A stretch of 64,000 nt of DNA from a virus (lineage: Duplodnaviria; Heunggongvirae; Uroviricota; Caudoviricetes), in the IMG/VR virus record IMGVR_UViG_2671180676_000004, positions 1 to 64,000 of that record; one strand, written 5' to 3'. This document shows, in pieces, positions 4,293 to 64,000 of the stretch. Within the stretch, counting starts at the first letter, position 1, and every line of letters begins with the position of its first letter. A program made the position numbers and the translations under genes. The notes below the pieces were generated by a model. That model saw only the letters and a program-made list of their open reading frames with translations. It was not told the DNA's origin and searched no databases.

Positions 4293-4907
4293 ATGTTCGG
4301 GATGTCAATTACTCAATCAGATGGAAGTTTGTGGATGAGTCCAGAATTTACTCCGCAAAATCTGATTAATAAAGGGACAATGTCTACATCTAAAGGTTCT
4401 GTTTTTCAAACATCAATCCCATCAAACAAATCATGCTTTTTCTTCATAAAAAGCAGTAATAAGGCGAACATGATGTTTATTCATGAGCATAGTAACGGAT
4501 ACAATGCTCTCAGATTGCATCAGGTAAATGGTAGCCCCGGAACAATAACAGTTTATGCTTTTTCTGATATGGTGTTACCACATTCTGGCTATGGCATTGC
4601 CATGTATAACAGCGCAGGCGCAATGGTGTATCACGGTGAGATGATGCCCCTTGATGCGAAACTTATCACTATTTCTGACCCTCAATTTACAATAGATATG
4701 GGGTATCCATGTGCGGTAATGCCTGCTATGGTTGGGGTATATAACTATAGACGAACCGATTACGACAGACCTGTCTATGTAACAATGACAGGTGCAACTG
4801 AAAACCAAGTATATAACGGTCAATGGTATTCCGGTAATGTCACATGGGATATTAAGAAGATTTATACAAACAAAATTCTGGTGATAAATACCTCCAAGTA
4901 TGATTAG
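4293..4907 (+). CDS. Hypothetical protein (204 aa)
   Basis: ATG 3 nt after the upstream stop; frame already open from 4236, so possibly one gene split by a frameshift. Confidence 0.4.
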   Translation: MFGMSITQSDGSLWMSPEFTPQNLINKGTMSTSKGSVFQTSIPSNKSCFFFIKSSNKANMMFIHEHSNGYNALRLHQVNGSPGTITVYAFSDMVLPHSGYGIAMYNSAGAMVYHGEMMPLDAKLITISDPQFTIDMGYPCAVMPAMVGVYNYRRTDYDRPVYVTMTGATENQVYNGQWYSGNVTWDIKKIYTNKILVINTSKYD

Positions 4908-5545: not shown

Positions 5546-8500
5546 CTATATCTGCCCACCTACTCCTTTGAACTTTTCAATAAACGTGACGATTTTCTGG
5601 AAAACCGTCTGTTTTTTCGTTTTATATTGCGGGTTTAACGGACTAAGTTTTGGTAATGTCTCGTTTAATTCTGTGCCATTTTCGGTGGCGTATTCGCGTT
5701 TTAAAGACGTGCGAATATAGCGTTTCGCCGCCTCTTCATTGAGATTTTCTTCTTTAATCAACGCTTCTGCTTCACGTAGCTGTTCGTGTTGAGCAAAGGT
5801 AAAGAACGCGTCAATGATGCTGGCTTTGTCTGGTAAATCATCCAGGTTCGTTTGCTGAATAAAATCGACCACCAGGCCCTCTTTAGCACGGTTCCCTAGG
5901 CTTGAACGAATTAAGCGTTTGACCTCTTCGATCATTTCGCCCTTGCCTTTATTTTGTCTGTTGTGTTCGAAAATCAGTCCAAGGATATAATCCAGGTTTA
6001 TTTCCTGAGACTTCAGCAAATCGACCTCAAAAACTACGTCATCCCAGTCAGTGGTTGATTTCTCTTTTTTCTCAGCTTCTTTCTCACGGCGCTGCCAGTC
6101 GCGAATATCGTTATAGGCAGAACGATAATCCTGAATCTTGCGATCAGCAGGGAGACGAATTGTTTGCAATTCAGCGAACTTTTCATCATCCACATAATGT
6201 TCTGCTTTGAATTTTTCTACCGCAACAGGATCGCTAAGATCGATTTGTTGCAGGGCTTTTAGCGTGGCAAATTCATCATAGTTTTGCAGGATGTTCTCGG
6301 CACGCAGGTATTCGCCAAACAGTTTAACGAAGTCTTTCTTCTCTTTTTCACTTTCAATACTGGCAGGGTCAGGGAACCGTTGTTCCAGTTCTGAAACTAC
6401 TGCCATAAAGCCGCGTTTAGCTTCACCTGTAGCAGCATCAGTAAAGCCTTCCATATACTCTGCATAACTCTTTTCTAACACTACATTTTTGGTGTTTTTG
6501 TCACCAAACAGCGTTATGGCATCGATGGTTGAGCGTTCCAGATCGCGGAAAGTGACGATATTACCGAAGGTTTTAGTCGCGTCATAAATGCGGTTGGTAC
6601 GGGAAAATGCCTGCATCAGGCCGTGAAAACGCAAGTTTTTATCGACGAATAGCGTGTTTAATGTTGGAGCATCGAAGCCGGTTAAAAACATCCCCACGAC
6701 GATTAACAAGTCAACATCCTGATTTTTAACCCGCTGAGCCAGGTCCCGATAGTAGTTCTGAAAACCCTTGCTATCAGTGCTGAAATTCATTTGAAAATGG
6801 TCGTTATACTCACGAATTGCAGCGTCCAGAAACTCTTTAGCACTGCTGTCCATTGCACTGGTATCAAAAGATTCATCGGATATTTCACCAATGGCATTTT
6901 GTTCTTCATTAGCGGCAAAGGAGAAGATTGTCGCAACACGCAGTGGTTTATAGGTAGCAGATTTATTAGCTGCTTCCTCTTGTAACCGTTTAAACGTCGC
7001 GTAATAGGCTTTCGCGGCATCCACGCTGCTCACTGCCAACATAGCATTAAAACCTTTTGAGCCAGGGAAGGTACGGTGGGTTTTCTGGCGGAAATTATTC
7101 AGAATATATTGCGTGATTTCCTGAATACGCATGGGATGAAGAAACGCCTGCTGATTTTCAGCCGCACTCAGTTTTTTCTCGTCAGTTTCTGTCTCTAAAG
7201 ACTTAAACTGTGGCCGCACATCGTTGTAGTCCACCTTGAATTTGAGCACTTTTTCGTCACGAATCGCATCGGTAATTACATACGAATGCAATTCACGACC
7301 AAATACGCTGGCGGTTGTTTCTGAGCCTAAGGCGTTTTCCGGGAAAATAGGGGTGCCGGTAAAACCAAACTGATAATAACGTTTGAATTTCTTCTTCAGG
7401 TTTTTCTGCGCTTCTCCAAACTGGCTGCGGTGGCATTCATCAAATATAAACACCACTTGCTGATTATATACAGGCAGGTCGCTTTCTGCTTTCATCAGGT
7501 TATTGAGTTTCTGAATAGTAGTGACGATAATTTTGTTATCGTCCTTATCCAGATTTCGTTTAAGGCCTGCGGTATTTTCCGAGCCGTTGACGCTGTCTGG
7601 CGAAAAACGCTGATATTCCTTCATGGTCTGGTAATCGAGGTCTTTCCTGTCGACCACAAAGAAGACTTTATCAATAAAGTCCAGCTCTGTTGCCAGACGC
7701 GCGGCTTTAAAGCTGGTGAGGGTTTTACCAGAACCGGTAGTGTGCCAGATATACCCACCGCTTTCCGGTTTTGACCAGTTCTTCGCTGTAAAGGAACTCT
7801 TAATTTTCCACAGAATGCGCTCGGTGGCGGCAATCTGGTACGGTCGCATCACCAGTAGCGTCTGACTACTGTCAAAAACGCTGTAGTTCACCAGAACATT
7901 CAGCAGAGTATGTTTCTGGAAAAAGGTAGCGGTAAAGTCTTTGAGGTCTTTAATCAGCGTGTTGTCTGATTTCGCCCAATTCATGGTGAAGTCAAAACTG
8001 TTTTTATCGCGCTTTGTGGTGTTGGCAAAATAACGGGTATCAGTGCCGTTGGAAATGACGAACAGCTGCAGATACTTAAACAGGGAATTTTCGCTGTTAA
8101 AACTCTCTTTACTGTAACGATGTATCTGGTTGAAAGCCTCACGAATCGCCACCCCGCGTTTTTTTAGTTCGATTTGCACCAGCGGTAAACCATTAACCAG
8201 GATCGTGACGTCATAACGGTTAGCATGAGAACCCGTCTGTTCAAACTGCTGGATAATCTGCACCTTATTGCGCATGAGATTCTTTTTATCTATCAAATAG
8301 ATGTTCTCAAGTCGCCCGTCGTCAAAAATAAAGTCGCAGATATAGTCGATATGGATTTTACGGGTTTTATCCAGAATACCATCGCTGGGGTTGTCCAGAT
8401 ACTGCTCCGTGAAGCGCCGCCACTCGCTGTCATTAAACATCACACCATTGAGGCTCTGAAGCTGTTCCCGAACATTGGACAGCATTGCCGACTGTGATTT

Positions 8501-53444: not shown

Positions 53445-56400
53445 ATGTGGTACAGGGAAGGTACTATCACATTTACACAGGGTAGCAATACTCTGGTTGG
53501 GGCAGGGACAGCCTGGAACGTAACAGCTAATGGTGTGTTGCCGGGGATGATCGTCATTGGCCCCGACAATAAGCTGTATGAGATCAAGCGCGTAATAAGC
53601 GATACGAATATTGTTCTCTCAGAACCTTATACCGGCGAAACTCAGTCTGAGGTTCCGTGCCGAATCATTACGACCTATGAAGGCGACTTAACACAGTTTA
53701 GCGCGCGCTTTACAGCACTAATGTCGCGTATGTCGGCTGATTCCAAGTCTATGCGCAGTTGGTTGACTGCTCTGGATGAGGTGACAATCGAGCGTGAAGA
53801 CGGTACAGAAGTAACCGTTAAGCCGCTAATGCAGATCGTCAACGAGCACAACGAAAACGTTGAGTGGTATAAAAATAACACTGACGCGATTGATGCTGCT
53901 GGCGACAAAGCTCGTGAGGCGGCGGCCAGTGCTGCCGCAGCAGCAGAAAGCGCCAATACCGCTGGAGAAAAAGCCTCTCAAGCGTCTCAAAGTGCATCCG
54001 CTGCGGCATCCTCACAAAGTGCCGCAAGTGCGAGTGCAACTGCTGCGAAAAAATCTGAAACGAATGCCGCAGCGTCACAACAATCAGCAGCCACTTCTGC
54101 ATCCACCGCGACCACGAAAGCGTCAGAAGCTGCCACCTCAGCCCGGGATGCGGCGGCCTCAAAAGAGGCAGCGAAATCATCAGAAACGAGCGCAGCCTCG
54201 AGCGCCAGTAATGCCGCTTCCTCGGCAACGGCGGCAGGAAATTCCGCGAAGGCGGCAAAAACGTCCGAGACGAACGCCAGGTCTTCTGAAACGGCAGCGG
54301 GACAGAGCGCCTCGGCTGCGGCAGGCTCAAAAACAGCGGCTGCGTCGTCTGCCAGTGCCGCGTCAACAAGTGCCGGGCAGGCCTCAGCCAGTGCCACCGC
54401 CGCCGGAAAATCGGCAGAAAGTGCCGCATCGTCTGCTTCAACAGCCACAACGAAGGCTGGCGAAGCCACTGAACAGGCCAGCGCAGCAGCGAGGTCTGCT
54501 TCCGCAGCGAAGACATCCGAAACGAACGCGAAAGCGTCGGAAACCCGTGCAGAATCCTCAAAAACGGCAGCCGCATCGTCCGCCAGTTCGGCAGCGTCAT
54601 CGGCATCATCGGCGTCTGCTTCAAAAGATGAGGCGACCAGACAAGCGTCCGCAGCGAAGGGCAGCGCCACGACAGCATCCACGAAAGCAACAGAGGCGGC
54701 AGGCAGTGCGACGGCAGCATCTCAGAGCAAAACTGCTGCTGAATCCGCTGCGACCCGTGCGGAAGCTGCTGCTGATCGTGCTGAAGAGATTGCCGGTGCA
54801 GTTGCGATGGAAGATGCAAGCCTTACCACCAAAGGTGTTGTGAAACTTAGCAGTGCTGTCGACAGCACCAGTGAATCTTTAGCCGCGACACCAAAAGCAG
54901 TTAAGACCGCATATGATAATGCTGAAAAACGACTACAGAAGGATCAGAATGGTGCTGATATCCCCGACAAGGGCCGCTTCCTGAATAACATTAATGTTTA
55001 CAGCAAAGGTGAAGTGGATCAGAAAAAGGGGATGCGATACGTTGTGGTCAATGCCCCGGCGGGTGTCCAGGAAGGTAAATATTATCCGTTAGTGATAAAA
55101 AGGAATGACAGCCATCGGGCATCCCGCGTTGTCATTTCAACGCCAAGTCGCACAGCTAATCACAGAATGAATAACTGTGAGTTTAATGGTTTTGTTTGCG
55201 CAGGCGGCTGGACGGACCGGGGTAGCTATGCCTGTGGTATGTTCTGGGCTTATTCATCATCGGAACGCGCTATTCATTCCATTCTGATGAGTAATAAAGG
55301 CGATACCGTAGACAGCGTATTCTATATAGAAGGTGGGGCATTTCCCGTAGAGGTCTTTTTAGAAGAAGGACTTTCTGTTACTGCTCCTGCTTCTGATTAT
55401 GTTGTTGCTGAAACGACTTATAAATTTGGCGCAACTGATCCTTATTCTGAATCAGTTGCGGTAAATTTAATTTTAGATTTTAAACAAGGTAATGGATTTT
55501 ATAGTTCGTATCCTGTTTTGAGTAAGTCAGACATTAGCGGTAATAAGGTTTACGCTAATGATGAAGTTATTGTCCGTAGTCAGAATGCGTTAAGGATGAT
55601 TGCTGGCGATTACGGTGTCATATGGCGAAATGATGGAGCAAATACTTACTTGCTCATGACTGATAAAGGCGACCAGTACGGTGGCTGGAACGGTCTTCGA
55701 CCATTTGCAGTAAATAACGCAACAGGTGAAGTGACGATCAATACACCACTTAATTCTCCAAAAGGGGTTAAGGGGAACTCTGATACAGCTACGAAACTTC
55801 AGACTGCAAGAAAAATATCCGGTGTTCCATTTGATGGCTCTACTGATATCACTTTAACCGCCGCGCATGTTGCCGCTTTCGCAAGAAGAGCAACAGGGTC
55901 ATATGCTGATGCTGATGGCGGCGTGCCGTGGAATGCTGAATCTGGTGCTTATAATGTAACTAGAACGGGCGACAGTTATATTCTTGCCAACTTTTATACT
56001 GGTGTAGGTAGTTGCCGTACGCTTCAAATTAAGGCTCACTATAAAAATGGTGGGTTGTTTTATCGTTCATCTCGCGATGGAAGTGGTTTTGAAAGTGGTT
56101 GGGAGCAGGTTTACACGACTGGATTTAGACCTCAGCCGGCTGATATAAACGCACCAACCGCTGCCGCCGGATGGTTAAATAGTGGTAACGGAACAGCATT
56201 TACGACTGCTCAGTTTATAACGTGGCTAAATAATCAGGGTGCATTTTCAAACAAATATTGGATTGCACGGTGCTCATGGACTTACGCCAACAATAATTAT
56301 ATAGACGACACTGGATGTGGCAGGATCGATCTATCTGGTTCCGTGATTGAGGTGTTTAGTAATAAGTCAACAAGCCACTACACTATTCGTGTTACAACGA

Positions 56401-57734
56401 CAACAACATCGGGCCATGGTGGTGTTAATAATGCGGAGTTTATTTATGTGTACAATGGCAGTGATTACTCGCCAGGCTGGCGTCGTTCTTATAATACTAG
56501 AAACAAACCAACAGCTTCTGATGTAGGAGCATTATCGCTTTCTGGAGGAGCGTTAACTGGCGGATTAACTGCTGCTGGCGAGATTATTTCAAAATCGGCG
56601 AATGGTCTGCGCATTGCCTACGGAAACTACGGATTCTTTATCCGAAACGATGGTTCAAGCACATACTTCATGTTGACCGATTCGGGTAACAGCCTGGGAA
56701 CCTATAATAGTTTAAGGCCGCTTATCATTAACAATGCCAATGGTGCTGTTAGGATCGGTAATGGACTCAATGTTACTGGCGGCATCAATGGTAGTTTGGA
56801 CGGTAATGCTTCAACAGCTACGAAGTTGCAAACAGCGAGAAACATCAATGGTGTTAAGTTTGATGGTTCAGGCGATATCAATATTAATACATTGGTATCT
56901 CGTGGCCGAGTTACGGCGTTAAGCGGCTCTACTCAAGGCACTGCTGGCATTCAAATGTATGAGGCGTACAACAATAGCTACCCGACCATGTATGGCAACG
57001 TATTGCACATGAAAGGTGCGAGTGCTGCTGGTGAGGGAGAGTTGCTTATTGGCTGGAGTGGTACGAGCGGTGCACATGCGCCAGTTTTCATTCGCTCACG
57101 AAGAGATAACACAGGTGCGGCATGGTCAGCGTGGGCGCAGGTATATACCGCTAAGGATTCAATCCCTGGTGTGAATACAACTGGTAATCAGAACACTACT
57201 GGTAATGCCGCAACCGCCACAAAATTGCAGACAGCAAGGAAAATTGCTGGTGTGGCATTTGATGGCTCTGCCGATATAACTTTGACTGCGGCTAACCTTA
57301 ATGCTTACACGAAAACAGAGGTAACAAACCTTCTAAGTTCCTATGTGAAGAGCAGTGCTCTTCCAAGCATGACTGTGCGAACTTCCTCTGTTTCAGGTGG
57401 GGATATGGGCATGAGCTTGTCCGCATTCATTAGCCACCTAAAATCAAATGGGGCGTTTAGCAAAAGTTATTGGATTGGCTTTGGCGATGCTATGGGATTC
57501 AATGCTGGCAGTATCAACAATATAACGGGATTTGGTGCTGTAGAATTAGCAGAATCTATAATCGAAGTTTTTAATCTACCTAACGGTGATTATACAATTC
57601 GTTTAACAACGTCACATAAAGCTGACTACGGTGGAGTTACAAACGCAATCCTCGTTTATCACTACCGTAGTAATAGAAGTCCGTCAGGTCAATGGCTGAA
57701 ATTTGCAGGTACTGTTGGGGCAACAAGTAACTGA
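53445..57734 (+). CDS. Side tail fibre protein
   Basis: 1429 aa; long Ala/Ser-rich segment; fibre motif ATPKAVKTAYD; three ATKLQTAR(K/N)I.GV.FDGS.DI repeats. Confidence 0.8.
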   Translation: MWYREGTITFTQGSNTLVGAGTAWNVTANGVLPGMIVIGPDNKLYEIKRVISDTNIVLSEPYTGETQSEVPCRIITTYEGDLTQFSARFTALMSRMSADSKSMRSWLTALDEVTIEREDGTEVTVKPLMQIVNEHNENVEWYKNNTDAIDAAGDKAREAAASAAAAAESANTAGEKASQASQSASAAASSQSAASASATAAKKSETNAAASQQSAATSASTATTKASEAATSARDAAASKEAAKSSETSAASSASNAASSATAAGNSAKAAKTSETNARSSETAAGQSASAAAGSKTAAASSASAASTSAGQASASATAAGKSAESAASSASTATTKAGEATEQASAAARSASAAKTSETNAKASETRAESSKTAAASSASSAASSASSASASKDEATRQASAAKGSATTASTKATEAAGSATAASQSKTAAESAATRAEAAADRAEEIAGAVAMEDASLTTKGVVKLSSAVDSTSESLAATPKAVKTAYDNAEKRLQKDQNGADIPDKGRFLNNINVYSKGEVDQKKGMRYVVVNAPAGVQEGKYYPLVIKRNDSHRASRVVISTPSRTANHRMNNCEFNGFVCAGGWTDRGSYACGMFWAYSSSERAIHSILMSNKGDTVDSVFYIEGGAFPVEVFLEEGLSVTAPASDYVVAETTYKFGATDPYSESVAVNLILDFKQGNGFYSSYPVLSKSDISGNKVYANDEVIVRSQNALRMIAGDYGVIWRNDGANTYLLMTDKGDQYGGWNGLRPFAVNNATGEVTINTPLNSPKGVKGNSDTATKLQTARKISGVPFDGSTDITLTAAHVAAFARRATGSYADADGGVPWNAESGAYNVTRTGDSYILANFYTGVGSCRTLQIKAHYKNGGLFYRSSRDGSGFESGWEQVYTTGFRPQPADINAPTAAAGWLNSGNGTAFTTAQFITWLNNQGAFSNKYWIARCSWTYANNNYIDDTGCGRIDLSGSVIEVFSNKSTSHYTIRVTTTTTSGHGGVNNAEFIYVYNGSDYSPGWRRSYNTRNKPTASDVGALSLSGGALTGGLTAAGEIISKSANGLRIAYGNYGFFIRNDGSSTYFMLTDSGNSLGTYNSLRPLIINNANGAVRIGNGLNVTGGINGSLDGNASTATKLQTARNINGVKFDGSGDININTLVSRGRVTALSGSTQGTAGIQMYEAYNNSYPTMYGNVLHMKGASAAGEGELLIGWSGTSGAHAPVFIRSRRDNTGAAWSAWAQVYTAKDSIPGVNTTGNQNTTGNAATATKLQTARKIAGVAFDGSADITLTAANLNAYTKTEVTNLLSSYVKSSALPSMTVRTSSVSGGDMGMSLSAFISHLKSNGAFSKSYWIGFGDAMGFNAGSINNITGFGAVELAESIIEVFNLPNGDYTIRLTTSHKADYGGVTNAILVYHYRSNRSPSGQWLKFAGTVGATSN

Positions 57735-59386: not shown

Positions 59387-59908
59387 TTATTCTTCGAACA
59401 ATTTTTCGATAGATTTTGTAGGATAGAACAAAGAACGCTCGTTGTTACCAACCAGCTGGATAAAGCCTAAACTTTTATAAAACGCCTTGGCTTTGTCATT
59501 TAACGCCTCAACGAAAAGTCCATGAATGCCTACAGCAAGAGATGCATTGTACACAACGCGCATTGCATGTGTTACAAGCATTGAGCCAAATCCTTGACCT
59601 TGAAGGGACTTGTCCAAAGCCAGCCTACCCAAAGTAACACTTGGAACATTCCGATAAGGTACCTTCTTTTGCTGGCTTCTTGAAGGTAAGGACTCCTTTT
59701 CAAAGCAGCTGCCTGACAAAGTGTAATACCCTAACACTTTTGGTCTGTCTTCTTTCGTGAAAAGCACATAAGCGCGAAGAATTTTTCCCTCATGCTGCCT
59801 TTTTAAGTGGTTGGTTAAAAAGGCATTTAGTGATTCTTCACCGCAATCAAAACCATTCAAATCATAATCTTTCTCTCCAGAGAAAATTTCTATCTTTATA
59901 TTATCCAC
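59387..59908 (-). CDS. GNAT-family tRNA-acetylating toxin (AtaT/ItaT/TacT-like)
   Basis: 173 aa; strong resemblance to remembered AtaT (…DYDL..FDCGEE.LN.FLT.HL.RQH…ILRAY.L…VLGYYTL.GSCFE…LPS.S.QKK.PY.N.PSVTLGRLA.D.SLQGQG…GIHGLFVEALN.KA..FYKSLGF). Confidence 0.8.
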   Translation of the reverse strand: MDNIKIEIFSGEKDYDLNGFDCGEESLNAFLTNHLKRQHEGKILRAYVLFTKEDRPKVLGYYTLSGSCFEKESLPSRSQQKKVPYRNVPSVTLGRLALDKSLQGQGFGSMLVTHAMRVVYNASLAVGIHGLFVEALNDKAKAFYKSLGFIQLVGNNERSLFYPTKSIEKLFEE

Positions 59909-59915
59909 GAGTAAA

Positions 59916-60185
59916 CTACTCCATGCTTTTCAGACGATCAGCAGCTCGTTTCAGCTTGTCGTTCGGTGCCGGAGGATTGCTTATAGCGTCCATAACCAGA
60001 TTCCAGGATTCTTCATTCAGAACTAGTCTACGGTGTTGCTCTATAACTTTCACGGCACGTTCAGATGCACTGCTAACCATAAACTGAGTAATGCTCTGGT
60101 TAGACATTGCGGCAGCTTCCTCGATGATGCTTTTATCGTCATCGGTTAATCTCAAATCGATGCGCTGCTTTTTTAGTGCTGACAT
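59916..60185 (-). CDS. DUF1778 (RHH) antitoxin, AtaR-like
   Basis: …KKQRIDLRLTDDDK…NQS..QFM..SAS.RA..VIEQHRR..LNEESW…NPP.P..KLKRAA.RL; ATG 60185 with SD AGGAGG; 7 nt upstream of the toxin. Confidence 0.8.
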   Translation of the reverse strand: MSALKKQRIDLRLTDDDKSIIEEAAAMSNQSITQFMVSSASERAVKVIEQHRRLVLNEESWNLVMDAISNPPAPNDKLKRAADRLKSME

Positions 60186-60453
60186 GTATTCCTCCTGATG
60201 GCCGTGATGTAGGAAGGCCATCAATCTCCTCTGTTCAAACTGAGTTTTCGACTCAAAAATTACTTTAAAAGGCTATAGCCCATTACGTGTGCATTATCAA
60301 ATTGTGTACGGCATATCACCGTACTTGTAATATAGAGGTCATTGTTACTTTTTTCAACAGACAAATACAAGCTATGATTGCCAATTGTTAATCACAACCT
60401 ACCATTTAACCTTTACACCGCAGCCGTAGGCATTTAGGCTATATCACATATAA

Positions 60454-60503: not shown

Positions 60504-61172
60504 ATGACCAAGATCTTTGTGGTTGGCGGCACAAAGGGCGGGCCTGGCAAATCCACCGTTGCCCAGCAAATTGCCGTTTGCCTGAAAGTCAAAAAGAAGA
60601 AGAAGGTTTATATTACCGATATAGATATTCAGCGCACGACAACGAGCTGGTGTGAAGACCGTCGACAGAACGAAGACCTTGAGCTGATTCCTTTTGCATA
60701 CGTTCAGGATGACATCATTAAGCACCTAAAATCGCTTCAGGGTAGAGCTGAGTTTGTAGTGGTAGATGCTGGTGGCTTCGACTCCGAAATTCAGCGACAA
60801 GCGATGCTGATGGCTGACGTTATCATTATCCCGCTGCGTCCTAAGCGTCGTGATTTGAAATCTTTACGTGACATCGATCCTATTATCGACAATGTTCGCA
60901 ATGTAAACGATAAAGTGAAGGTCCGCGCGGTCATGAACCAGTGCCCGGCTTTGCCATCACAAGTGTCTCGCATTCTGGCGGCTAAAGAGATTGTCGAGAC
61001 GTTTGGCATCGAGTCTGCGCCAGTCAATCTATATAACCGCAACGTCTACGATGATGCGGAAGAGTCTGGTCGTTCTATCTTCGAAATGACCGGTAGCGAG
61101 CGCGACAAAAAGGCGGAAGCCGAGTTTGAAGAATTTGTAGATTATCTGTTGAGTCTGGAGGAAGAAGAATAA
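60504..61172 (+). CDS. ParA/MinD-family partition ATPase
   Basis: Deviant Walker A GGTKGGPGKST. Confidence 0.75.
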   Translation: MTKIFVVGGTKGGPGKSTVAQQIAVCLKVKKKKKVYITDIDIQRTTTSWCEDRRQNEDLELIPFAYVQDDIIKHLKSLQGRAEFVVVDAGGFDSEIQRQAMLMADVIIIPLRPKRRDLKSLRDIDPIIDNVRNVNDKVKVRAVMNQCPALPSQVSRILAAKEIVETFGIESAPVNLYNRNVYDDAEESGRSIFEMTGSERDKKAEAEFEEFVDYLLSLEEEE

Positions 61173-61531
61173 TGTCCATGAAAATGGGTGACCTAGCAAA
61201 GCGCAAAGAGCCTGATGCACCGGCTAAGAACACAACTCCTTTGCGCCAACCAGTCAGACCACAAGGACGCCCGACTCGTGGCAAAGAGAAAATTAAAAGC
61301 CGCACCATGTCACTGGAAGACGAATACTTCGAGCTTCTGGAAATGATGAAGTTTATCCCTCGTTTCGAGAAGTTCACCCGCTCTGATGTGATTCGTGCTG
61401 CTATTTTCCATCTGGCAGAGAAGTCGCCGCAGGAAATCGAGGATATCGTGAAACTTAACGAGGCGATCACTGCTGCCGACGTCACGATGCGTACCGATGA
61501 AATCAAACGCGAGTTGATGAAGAAAGGTTAA
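61172..61531 (+). CDS. Small partner protein of the ParA-like ATPase
   Basis: 119 aa; basic disordered N-terminus then helical domain; ATG overlaps parA stop. Confidence 0.45.
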   Translation: MSMKMGDLAKRKEPDAPAKNTTPLRQPVRPQGRPTRGKEKIKSRTMSLEDEYFELLEMMKFIPRFEKFTRSDVIRAAIFHLAEKSPQEIEDIVKLNEAITAADVTMRTDEIKRELMKKG

Positions 61532-61538
61532 TTTTATT

Positions 61539-61563
61539 GAGGTGCTGCTTGGCACCTCTTTCT
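61539..61563 (+). terminator. Intrinsic terminator
   Basis: gaggtgc-tgcttg-gcacctc + TTTCT. Confidence 0.7.
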
Positions 61564-61575
61564 ATAGGTTCCCTA

Positions 61576-62295
61576 ATGCTCTACAAATATATTGGAAGTG
61601 AAGATTCGCAAAAAGTGTTACGTAACCTCAAACGGTTTGTAGAGGACGGCACTATCTCTGCTAGCGCACCTTCTTCATTCAACGACCCATCAGAGTTCAA
61701 AGTTTCGATAACGATGGGAGGTACAGAAGTGGAGCGCCGGAAACACTTTGAAGACAATGGATGTAAGGATTTTTCCTTTGAAGACTGGGATGCTGTAGCT
61801 CCTGAAGCTGCAAAATCGTTGGCTGTGGATTTGCGGAAAGAATCATTAGGGGCTTTTGGTGTGGTGTGCTTGTCACCAAACGAAGATAACATCTTGATGT
61901 GGTCACATTACTCAGTGTCGCATAAAGGTTTCTGCATAGGCTTTGATGATGATTTTGTTACCTCTATTGAGGGGTATCACAGCTTTGATAATGTGAAATA
62001 TATACCTTCTGTTCCCGTGTTCGATGAAGTTACAGATGAGTTTAAGGTACTTTTTGATAAGCTCTTTTTCTACAAGCACGAATGCTGGAAATATGAGGAA
62101 GAACAAAGGGTTATTACTAAAAAAATAGGCGCTCAGGCATTTGATAAGAAATATATTAGAGAGATCATTCTTGGACATAACGTTTCTCCTGAAGTAGAAG
62201 AATATGCCCGGACACAGCTAGACACGAGCATCGAGGTTTACAAAATGAGTACACCTGATGATGGTTATCTTCTTGTCAAAGAAAAGCTGAAGTAG
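61576..62295 (+). CDS. DUF2971-like protein
   Basis: Starts MLYKY…; motifs SFNDPSEF and MWSHYS as I recall for DUF2971. Confidence 0.5.
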   Translation: MLYKYIGSEDSQKVLRNLKRFVEDGTISASAPSSFNDPSEFKVSITMGGTEVERRKHFEDNGCKDFSFEDWDAVAPEAAKSLAVDLRKESLGAFGVVCLSPNEDNILMWSHYSVSHKGFCIGFDDDFVTSIEGYHSFDNVKYIPSVPVFDEVTDEFKVLFDKLFFYKHECWKYEEEQRVITKKIGAQAFDKKYIREIILGHNVSPEVEEYARTQLDTSIEVYKMSTPDDGYLLVKEKLK

Positions 62296-62361
62296 CTCCA
62301 GACTTTCCTCAAATGATTATGTTGGGCGCTTTTCTTATTGAACTGGTTAGTGAGGCTAATA

Positions 62362-63534
62362 ATGGATTTGTTCTCAACCAAAATAGCAAAAAACAAGCTG
62401 CACGAATCTTTTAAACAGATTTATCAAGATAATACATATGCTCCAGTAAGAGAAGTGATACAGTCGTGGGGGCGTGGGTTACTGGAGCGTAGCGGTGAGC
62501 AGACTAAATTCGTTAAAGAGTTTCAGACAACCTTCAATTCCGCCTTATGGGAATTGTATCTGAACGAAATGTTTATTCGTCTCGATTATTCTGTCGACTA
62601 CACAAAAGACAGTCCCGATTTCTGTGTTACTACACCGTCAGGCTACCAGTTTAACGTCGAAGCTGTGATATCAGATCGGCCACATAATCCACCTGCAGGT
62701 GCTCTTTTTAGCGAATTAAAATTCAAACATCAATCAACGCTAAAATTAATCGGAAAAATCAAAGACAAACATGATCTTTTTACAGGAGTTAATGGCAAAA
62801 AATTCCCGTACTCTACGATGTCTCATGTAGTTAATAAGCCGTTTGTTCTGGCGCTTGCACCCTTTGACTCCGATTTATCATTGTCTCAAAATAACACAAT
62901 CATCAATCGAGTGTTGTTTGGCATTGAGGAACCTACCACCAGAAATTTGGTGACTGGCAGCCAAACTAAAGTTACCTCAATCAAAAAGAATGAAGACGTT
63001 GAAATTCCATTAGGTATATTTACTAACGACTCATATAAAGAAATAAGTGCGGTTATTTTCTCCACCACCGGCACTTTTGGAAAAGCCGTGGTTCAAAGCG
63101 GTATCGGTAGATATGTAAGGTCAACACGATATCGAGCCATTGATGTGAATGATTTCATCGCCAATGAAGGGATGAAAAACGAGGGAAAGCACACACAAAG
63201 GATAGGACCTGATCATTTCATCACTACATATCGGCATTTTTTAAATAACGAAGTCACTGGTGCGGATATTGTAGTTTGTCATTCCACTGCTCATGAAGAG
63301 ACGCACTTTGACGGCCTTCATATTTACTACAATCCTTTTGCGACAGTGCCACTGGACAGAAATATTTTCTTCCCCCCAGAGATAACTCATAATTTTTACG
63401 ATATGGAAAAAGAACAGTCTGTTCAGAATCATCCTGATGGAGCGCTGGTATCTAGACAGGTTTTTGAACCAACTAGAGCACATTTTAGGTATATCATGAA
63501 ACATTGGTTTCCAGGCTTTCTAAAAGATGTTTAA
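62362..63534 (+). CDS. Hypothetical protein (about 390 aa)
   Basis: ATG 62362 with SD GAGG; track start 62338 is TTG; followed by hairpin H3. Confidence 0.5.
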   Translation: MDLFSTKIAKNKLHESFKQIYQDNTYAPVREVIQSWGRGLLERSGEQTKFVKEFQTTFNSALWELYLNEMFIRLDYSVDYTKDSPDFCVTTPSGYQFNVEAVISDRPHNPPAGALFSELKFKHQSTLKLIGKIKDKHDLFTGVNGKKFPYSTMSHVVNKPFVLALAPFDSDLSLSQNNTIINRVLFGIEEPTTRNLVTGSQTKVTSIKKNEDVEIPLGIFTNDSYKEISAVIFSTTGTFGKAVVQSGIGRYVRSTRYRAIDVNDFIANEGMKNEGKHTQRIGPDHFITTYRHFLNNEVTGADIVVCHSTAHEETHFDGLHIYYNPFATVPLDRNIFFPPEITHNFYDMEKEQSVQNHPDGALVSRQVFEPTRAHFRYIMKHWFPGFLKDV

Positions 63535-63556
63535 GCATCCTGCTGGTTGAATTTGG

Positions 63557-63619
63557 AACCTGCTTCTGTATATAAATACTAAGTTACTTATTATTATTTA
63601 TACGGAAGCAGGTCTTTTT
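63557..63619 (+). terminator. Hairpin H copy 3, intrinsic terminator
   Basis: acctgcttctgtatataaata … tatttatacggaagcaggt, same T·G wobble, then TTTTT. Confidence 0.6.
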
Positions 63620-63700
63620 CTATGCCAACTTCCCAGACACATTCCCTTCCGTTTCCACTTCCAAAAACTGCCACCAGTCGCTATCATCCGCTCATTGCAA

Positions 63701-63720
63701 TAAGTAAGTAACTACCTATC
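63701..63720. repeat. Motif B copy (taagtaagtaactacctatc)
   Basis: Near-identical to the copy at 1718-1737; just upstream of the last partial gene. Confidence 0.5.
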
Positions 63721-63731
63721 TGGTGAGCCAC

Positions 63732-64000
63732 ATGAGCCAAATCTTTTTTGATACCATTGACAACGACCAGTACGACTTCATGACAGAGTGGAATACCGCT
63801 GTTATGGACAAGTGGGTCGCTGAAAACATTGGTTTGTCGCGCTGCAAAGACGAGGCTGAACTCTTCGAGACGAAGTGGTTTGATTACCGCGATATGCATC
63901 CTCTCATGGCCACCTGTCTGTTTACGGAGGCGTACAAACGTCAGTACTCAAATATCATGCTGACGCACGGTCGCGAACACTTTGAAACAGCTCCGTTCAC
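63732..64000 (+). CDS. Hypothetical protein, 5' part (runs off the right edge)
   Basis: ATG 63732; frame open to the window end (MSQIFFDTIDNDQYDFMTEW…). Confidence 0.35.
   Translation, partial: MSQIFFDTIDNDQYDFMTEWNTAVMDKWVAENIGLSRCKDEAELFETKWFDYRDMHPLMATCLFTEAYKRQYSNIMLTHGREHFETAPF

Follow-up and report, generated by a model that had tools for sequence, protein, structure and literature searches.

A variable slot in an SSU5-like phage-plasmid carries a DUF2971 gene and a close PD-T7-5 homologue, probably two separate immunity modules

Two genes in a variable slot of a phage-plasmid

The DNA analyzed here, the window, is a stretch of 64,000 nucleotides (nt) from a Caudoviricetes record (IMGVR_UViG_2671180676_000004), and close to its end two genes lie one behind the other on the plus strand. 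The upstream gene (61576-62295, ATG start) encodes a 239-amino acid (aa) protein of the DUF2971 family (PF11185) that matches the PADLOC candidate PDC-S31. The downstream gene (62362-63534, ATG start) encodes a 390-aa protein that matches the PADLOC profile of PD-T7-5. Both are found directly 3′ of a gene for ParA and a gene for a 119-aa protein in the ParB position, as an earlier note made from the DNA letters alone had described, and together they fill a slot of ∼2 kb (61532-63545) whose content varies among relatives. We consider it likely that this slot holds two independent single-gene immunity modules, which would guard the lysogen, and with it the element, against other phages.

A mechanical list of open reading frames (ORFs) opens both frames at upstream TTG codons, the second at TTG 62338. 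We favor the ATG starts over the TTG codons because the exact 239-aa and 390-aa proteins are found in public collections and the TTG-extended versions are not, because the family profiles start at the ATG in both proteins, and because a GAGG at 62352-62355 lies 6 nt 5′ of ATG 62362.

The limits of the slot were set by the loss and regain of homology with SSU5-like relatives, with breakpoints taken from pairwise comparison with seven relatives; eight relatives were surveyed in detail. On the left, homology stops at 61524-61533, at the stop codon of the ParB-position gene, and in two cases at 61586 or 61599; on the right, it is back at 63545-63558, 11 to 24 nt past the stop of the second gene. 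The breakpoints are sharp at both edges. In the same slot, phage Cyrano carries DUF2971 alone, SSU5 carries two unknown genes plus DUF2971, Cronobacter pCS1 carries PD-T7-5 alone, an E. hormaechei plasmid carries DUF2971 on the opposite strand, a K. oxytoca plasmid carries an unrelated 352-aa gene, and two E. coli plasmids carry an unrelated 225-aa gene, in one of them with IS3. The guanine-plus-cytosine (GC) content drops from ∼0.48 to 0.49 in the partition genes to 0.39 to 0.40 over the two genes. No direct repeats flanking the cargo were found.

The exact cargo is present in 11 of 464 plasmids that share the right flank. Some homologue of DUF2971 occurs in 244 plasmids, that is, in about half of the SSU5-like plasmids (244/∼464), and nearly all of these are <60% identical to the protein of the window. 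A PD-T7-5 homologue with ≥76% identity is present on 13 SSU5-like plasmids. Among 5,426 complete E. coli genomes, 13 have the cassette of both genes; in each it is plasmid-borne, and with one exception the plasmids are ∼111 to 113 kb in size. The slot is recombination-prone and swaps cargo between relatives. It resembles the P2/P4 hotspots and the defense hotspots of phage-plasmids and prophages, which likewise are fixed intergenic slots with sharp breakpoints and different defense or unknown genes.

The flanks of this region share 96 to 97.5% nucleotide identity with Escherichia phages CMS-2020a and Cyrano and 86% with Salmonella phage SSU5, and positions 61532-63732 are 100% identical to the E. 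coli plasmid NZ_CP157149.1 (111 kb). Based on these identities, the end of the window is assigned to the maintenance region of an SSU5-like E. coli phage-plasmid.

The PD-T7-5 family protein and the DUF2971 protein

The 390-aa protein, which the earlier note could place in no family, belongs to PD-T7-5: it matches the PADLOC PD-T7-5 profile (PDLC04110) with an E value of 4.5e-139 over profile positions 1-342 of 346. Its N-terminal ∼240 residues also match PD-T7-1 (PDLC04073; E value of 4e-42, model positions 108-347). In PHROGs it falls into phrog_8571, of unknown function, and Pfam and NCBIfam returned nothing meaningful, the sole match being Peptidase_M1 at an E value of 0.084. PD-T7-5 is one of 21 systems obtained by functional selection by Vassallo et al. 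2022 (Nat Microbiol, PMC9519451). What was validated is one ORF of E. coli UMB0934 (RRM82777.1), which these authors cloned on a 1436-bp fragment and labelled 'nuclease'; a reduction of T7 plaquing in E. coli K-12 was shown for this protein, which is 76% identical to ours.

The validated ORF was located via the published cloning primers (PMC9519451, Tables S2 and S8). Of 5,426 complete E. coli genomes, 135 have both primer sites on the chromosome at a distance of exactly 1436 bp; in E. coli 118UI (locus L003), a 390-aa ORF lies between them. BLASTP of the window protein against this ORF gives 76% identity (293/384 positions, no gaps). That the window might hold the very locus validated by Vassallo et al. 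was considered and rejected, as the window lacks the primers and the validated copy lies in an ssrA island of the chromosome. Given the 76% identity and the absence of the primers, the 390-aa protein is, at the level of sequence, a close PD-T7-5 orthologue, and neither the same allele nor the same locus.

The two proteins have the same length of 390 aa and are collinear, and both are single-gene units on a mobile element. They differ in that the window allele is 24% diverged and sits between partition and replication genes (the par-rep slot) right behind DUF2971, whereas the validated copy belongs to a chromosomal island, integrated at ssrA, that also encodes an integrase, AlpA and a DUF927 protein. 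Homology between the two begins 14 to 21 nt before the ATG, so that they have no upstream promoter region in common. PD-T7-1 is alike in the N-terminal ∼240 residues, including a PD-(D/E)XK-like core, and differs by an extra N-terminal stretch of ∼107 residues and by another C-terminus; the β-rich C-terminal ∼140 residues of the 390-aa protein are specific to PD-T7-5.

A search for the family at E ≤ 0.001 returned 564 matches, with ∼50% identity across Proteobacteria. An alignment of 32 members has 72 invariant positions, with E64, P85-D86 and E100 among them; by construction of the alignment these residues are present in both the window protein and the validated protein. The alignment used for structure prediction includes a protein (P0037) that is 99% identical to that of L003. 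The resulting model shows a weak PD-(D/E)XK-like N-terminal core, with the invariant E64, P85-D86 and E100 on the helix and strands expected for this motif. Published HHpred analysis gave weak Hjc/PDDEXK matches for PD-T7-5 and PD-T7-1, with probabilities of 43 to 78%. Nuclease families in Pfam and NCBIfam gave no match to the 390-aa protein at E ≤ 0.1, and a profile search of the PD-T7-5 family against PDB sequences gave nothing significant. Foldseek of the model against the PDB returned nothing at E ≤ 0.001, no solved structure resembling the whole protein, and found no assignable relative of the β-rich C-terminal part. We regard a nuclease core in the N-terminal part of the predicted structure as plausible.

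Several further observations concern this family. The island in E. coli 118UI (3072724-3084757) is a small ssrA/tmRNA island of satellite-like layout, in which the validated PD-T7-5 gene is flanked by two small hypothetical genes on the opposite strand. RefSeq names the 390-aa gene 'hypothetical protein' only, and UniRef and GenBank call several homologues 'glycosaminoglycan attachment site' protein, a name that seems to derive spuriously from a motif and to mask a defense family. Distant homologues (∼23% identity) are found in the temperate phages mEp460, Yersinia vB_YpM_46 and Morganella IME1369_01. The 5′ part of the gene in the window holds a 13-nt inverted repeat (62437-62491, 92% complementary, 29-nt spacing), which may be a chance match.

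The 239-aa protein scores 30.1 bits against Pfam PF11185 (cut-off 22, E value of 1.3e-6), which bears out the assignment to DUF2971 in the earlier note. It matches the single-gene PADLOC candidate PDC-S31 with an E value of 4.7e-38 over profile positions 9-254 of 259. Across 33 homologues, Y3, N36-D37-P38, W109-S110-H111-Y112, H116, G118 and Y142 are invariant, as are K167, W171, Y173, E174, R178 and G200, and E176 of an E174-x-E176 motif is kept in at least 90% of them. DUF2971 has been predicted to be a DarT-like ADP-ribosyltransferase (ART) of the HYE clade, with a conserved Tyr in motif II and ExE in motif III (PMC12522546), and the invariant Tyr/Glu pattern of the 239-aa protein fits this description. 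Its predicted structure adopts an ART fold of the DarT type, in which residues 108-112 have a predicted local distance difference test (pLDDT) score <50. It differs from the DarT of DarTG systems in its large helical inserts, and a profile search of the DUF2971 family against PDB sequences gave nothing significant and no HMMER-detectable similarity to solved DarT. No DarG macrodomain antitoxin or other partner lies next to DUF2971 here or in relatives, and the 44-nt and 66-nt spacers on its two sides fit no ORF. A toxin–antitoxin system of the DarTG type was therefore rejected.

The DUF2971 protein Aristaios, from a lactococcal plasmid, is a validated single-gene abortive infection (Abi) system (Grafakou et al. 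2024, PMC11381338); it acts by blocking transcription and protein production of the phage (PMC11381338, PMC13064643, PMC12967558). The 239-aa protein is like it in being a single DUF2971/PF11185 protein on a plasmid, with an ART-like predicted fold and without an adjacent antitoxin. Aristaios differs in its size of 316 aa and its Gram-positive host, and its phenotype is not one to be assumed for the 239-aa enterobacterial protein.

Slot edges, expression and neighboring genes

Both edges of the slot bear hairpins on the plus strand. The left one (61539-61558) is GC-rich with an 8-bp stem and lies just past the stop of the ParB-position gene; as RNA, it folds with −15.1 kcal/mol (z −2.9) and is followed by UUUCUAU, a poor U-tract. 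This terminator-like site resembles a weak terminator or an attenuator. In Cronobacter pCS1, where DUF2971 is missing, homology extends through this hairpin up to 61586, and by this alignment the hairpin is backbone and the left edge of the cargo slot. The right one, H3 (63558-63613), has 15-nt arms (63558-63572 and 63599-63613) around a 26-nt AT-rich loop, folds with −29.4 kcal/mol (z −6.4) and is followed by CUUUUUC. Its palindrome is kept in SSU5-like backbones with other cargo, namely Cyrano and E. coli CT01, where it was seen as self-reverse matches; in two relatives it lies at 6056-6111 (L001) and 4512-4568 (L008). It stands ∼120 nt 5′ of a conserved 246-aa gene that precedes dnaB. Because homology to relatives resumes at 63545-63558, H3 is taken as conserved backbone, terminator-like, and as the right edge of the slot. 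It may also have a role beyond termination, such as that of an operator or of a site involved in replication. The idea that H3 is a boundary repeat of the cargo or a recombination scar was rejected, since it is a single conserved palindrome with terminator features.

The earlier note had the two genes ending at H3 as terminal cargo. The hairpin is real, as its folding energy indicates, but it is part of the conserved backbone and not of the cargo, and the 'terminal' position is an effect of where the window ends: past the slot, relatives continue with the conserved 246-aa gene, a DnaB-like helicase and a primase.

The genes for ParA, the ParB-position protein, DUF2971 and PD-T7-5 are all on one strand, separated by 0, 44 and 66 nt, with H3 as a strong terminator-like hairpin behind the last of them. 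A promoter would not fit into the 44-nt spacer, which holds the left hairpin. The 66-nt spacer (62296-62361, plus strand), which contains the GAGG, is partly conserved with a diverged cassette on another contig (L012, described below). Because this spacer lacks stable structure (fold z +1.2), the DUF2971 and PD-T7-5 genes are probably co-transcribed. The simplest reading of the expression route is that both genes would be transcribed at a low level by read-through from the partition operon, which would lead to expression in the prophage-plasmid state.

Upstream, the ParA gene (60504-61172, plus strand) matches the MipZ/ParA/CbiA families, and the 119-aa ParB-position gene (61172-61531, plus strand) belongs to phrog_5111. 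The 119-aa protein is without a Pfam family, its sole matches being phrog_5111 and a weak NCBIfam hit of aCcr1 type, and its orthologue in Cyrano is annotated 'RelE/ParE putative toxin'. Because the protein sits after ParA, this label is probably wrong, and a small centromere-binding protein is more likely. Further upstream, on the minus strand between the lysis genes and parA, lies a TacAT/KacAT-type pair (59387-60224), comprising a GNAT acetyltransferase toxin (173 aa) and a TacA/DUF1778 antitoxin (102 aa; PF08681, E value of 8.6e-26); the surroundings are thus the accessory block of toxin–antitoxin and partition functions that the earlier note had recognized. As SSU5 and some relatives carry two unrelated genes in place of this pair, the site looks like a second variable slot. 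Lysis and tail-fiber genes follow further upstream. The tail-fiber ORF (53445-57734, 1429 aa) contains a long Ala/Ser-rich low-complexity stretch at about residues 150 to 470, and the GC content reaches 0.62 around 54000-54750.

Two proposed immunity modules and the alternatives

We propose that each of the two proteins would act by itself. By homology to the tested protein, the PD-T7-5 homologue would block T7-type phages alone. Its effector would be the N-terminal PD-(D/E)XK-type core, cutting phage or cellular nucleic acid, and the conserved β-rich C-terminal part may control or target this activity. DUF2971 would be an NAD+-dependent ADP-ribosyltransferase with a DarT-like fold. By analogy with Aristaios and DarT, it would, with infection as the trigger, ADP-ribosylate nucleic acid or a core component of gene expression, and this modification would abort phage gene expression. 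That the slot holds a phage-exclusion function, as had been supposed from its position, agrees with the 76% identity of one protein to the validated PD-T7-5, with the match of the other to PDC-S31, with the domain it has in common with Aristaios and with the variability of the slot. Two of the checks proposed with that supposition point the same way: homology searches with hidden Markov models (HMMs) matched PD-T7-5, PDC-S31 and PF11185 and found no housekeeping or structural homology, and the comparison of neighborhoods found a variable slot with different cargo in relatives.

Several points weigh against this interpretation. In the 390-aa protein, the canonical lysine of the (D/E)xK motif is replaced by a near-invariant valine, V102; one of the lysines that are invariant in the family (K82, K128 and K136) might substitute for it. 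Vassallo et al. made no mutants of PD-T7-5 (PMC9519451). With 24% divergence from the tested protein, the window allele could differ in specificity. For DUF2971, we found no paper that mentions or tests PDC-S31, which is a candidate class only, and the relation to Aristaios is one of shared PF11185 annotation, at the level of the Pfam domain. As about half of the SSU5-like plasmids carry it, DUF2971 could equally serve the biology of the element itself. Finally, a promoter scan performed at chance level (8 sites versus 7.8 expected).

Rather than cutting phage DNA, the PD-T7-5 homologue may have RNA as its target, in the manner of the CdiA-CT tRNase toxins for instance, and work by abortive infection; we hold this to be somewhat unlikely. 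Another possibility, which we judge unlikely, is that DUF2971 is a function of the phage-plasmid's own, either an ADP-ribosylating enzyme for host takeover or anti-defense, of the kind that lytic phages encode, or a maintenance or addiction factor, and not host immunity. The gene adjoins partition and toxin–antitoxin genes and has no antitoxin-like partner; 237 of the 244 plasmids that carry it are non-mobilizable, and those listed are mostly 105 to 130 kb in size. It occurs in about half of the elements with the backbone flank and behaves as semi-core, yet it evolves fast, with alleles only 39 to 54% identical on backbones that are 80 to 97% identical. This hypervariability, however, also suits a defense gene in an arms race, and the absence of DUF2971 from many otherwise intact relatives implies that the element can dispense with it. 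Moreover, the protein matches a PADLOC candidate class, it shares its slot with a bona fide defense gene, and the sole experimentally tested DUF2971 protein that we found is an anti-phage Abi system (PMC11381338). As for both genes being a housekeeping, structural or replication function of the phage-plasmid, their position between the partition module and the replication genes (the conserved 246-aa gene, DnaB helicase and primase) speaks in favor. The content of the slot, however, differs or is missing in close relatives that keep the flanks, only 11 of 464 flank-sharing plasmids carry the window cargo, its GC content is low, and neither protein matches a structural or replication family in Pfam, NCBIfam or the PHROGs categories, all of which makes such a function extremely improbable.

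Whether the two genes form one cooperative system, for example with the ART as sensor or modifier and PD-T7-5 as effector, was examined through their neighbors. The survey covered 79 diverse PD-T7-5-family loci from a one-genome-per-species collection, with a reach of 5 kb. None of the 79 has a DUF2971 ORF within that distance, and no neighbor family recurs in more than 7 of them. The pair does recur with diverged alleles: on an SSU5-like phage-plasmid (L010) at 54% identity for DUF2971 and 76% for PD-T7-5, and next to a CbtA toxin gene (L012 and L013) at 73% and 80%, with a partly conserved spacer of 66 to 67 nt. Consecutive accession numbers for the pair are also found in E. coli, Salmonella, Citrobacter and Enterobacter, and the DUF2971 alleles adjacent to PD-T7-5 group together, with 53 to 78% mutual identity versus 35 to 41% to the lone alleles of Cyrano and SSU5. 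Against cooperation stand the result of the survey, the presence in the same slot of PD-T7-5 without DUF2971 (pCS1) and of DUF2971 without PD-T7-5 (Cyrano and SSU5), and the validation of PD-T7-5 from a clone that held this one ORF between 119 nt of upstream and 143 nt of downstream sequence, at a locus without DUF2971; defense genes, moreover, commonly travel together without interacting. A joint two-gene system seems to us very unlikely, and an obligate one was rejected as the principal interpretation in view of the lone occurrences in the slot and the lack of pairing at the 79 loci. On the same grounds, we read DUF2971 and PD-T7-5 as two independent single-gene modules that sometimes travel as a mini-island.

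The copy next to the CbtA-family toxin gene deserves mention in its own right. On Logan contig SRR22022243_27822 (L012; 312-620 and 1696-3658), the diverged cassette lies downstream of that gene and outside any recognizable SSU5 backbone, which suggests that the cassette moves between element types. We further entertain, as a tentative and rather doubtful extension, that the enterobacterial DUF2971 proteins of the par-rep slot are hypervariable, antitoxin-less, DarT-like ARTs acting on nucleic acid as single-gene immunity, and that in the present lineage they have joined stably with PD-T7-5 in a co-transcribed cassette of two layers, of which one ADP-ribosylates and the other cleaves nucleic acid. 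This cassette would move between phage-plasmids and chromosomal islands.

The locus is an ordinary one for a mobile element. The proteins described here are new family members of kinds already reported, as is the presence of PD-T7-5 in this group: DefenseFinder output lists PD-T7-5 for the SSU5-group (clade J) phage-plasmids of E. coli and Shigella (bioRxiv 10.1101/2025.09.12.675607), and the accessible text of that preprint describes neither the position of the slot, from the ParB-position gene to H3, nor how often hypervariable alleles of DUF2971 occupy it. Mildly new are the definition of the slot, the fast-evolving DUF2971 in about half of the SSU5-like plasmids and the recurrent DUF2971/PD-T7-5 cassette.

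The RefSeq label 'hypothetical protein' conceals a close relative of a validated defense gene. Clinical E. coli, Shigella, Salmonella and Klebsiella commonly harbor SSU5-group phage-plasmids, and interchangeable anti-phage genes in the par-rep slot of these plasmids would help to predict phage susceptibility, as is relevant to phage therapy, and to explain the persistence of these elements. The fast-evolving DUF2971 alleles of the slot are a natural allele series for asking whether DUF2971 is an antitoxin-free, DarT-like defense, and the locus is a convenient test case for the mechanisms of PD-T7-5 and DUF2971 rather than a new kind of system.

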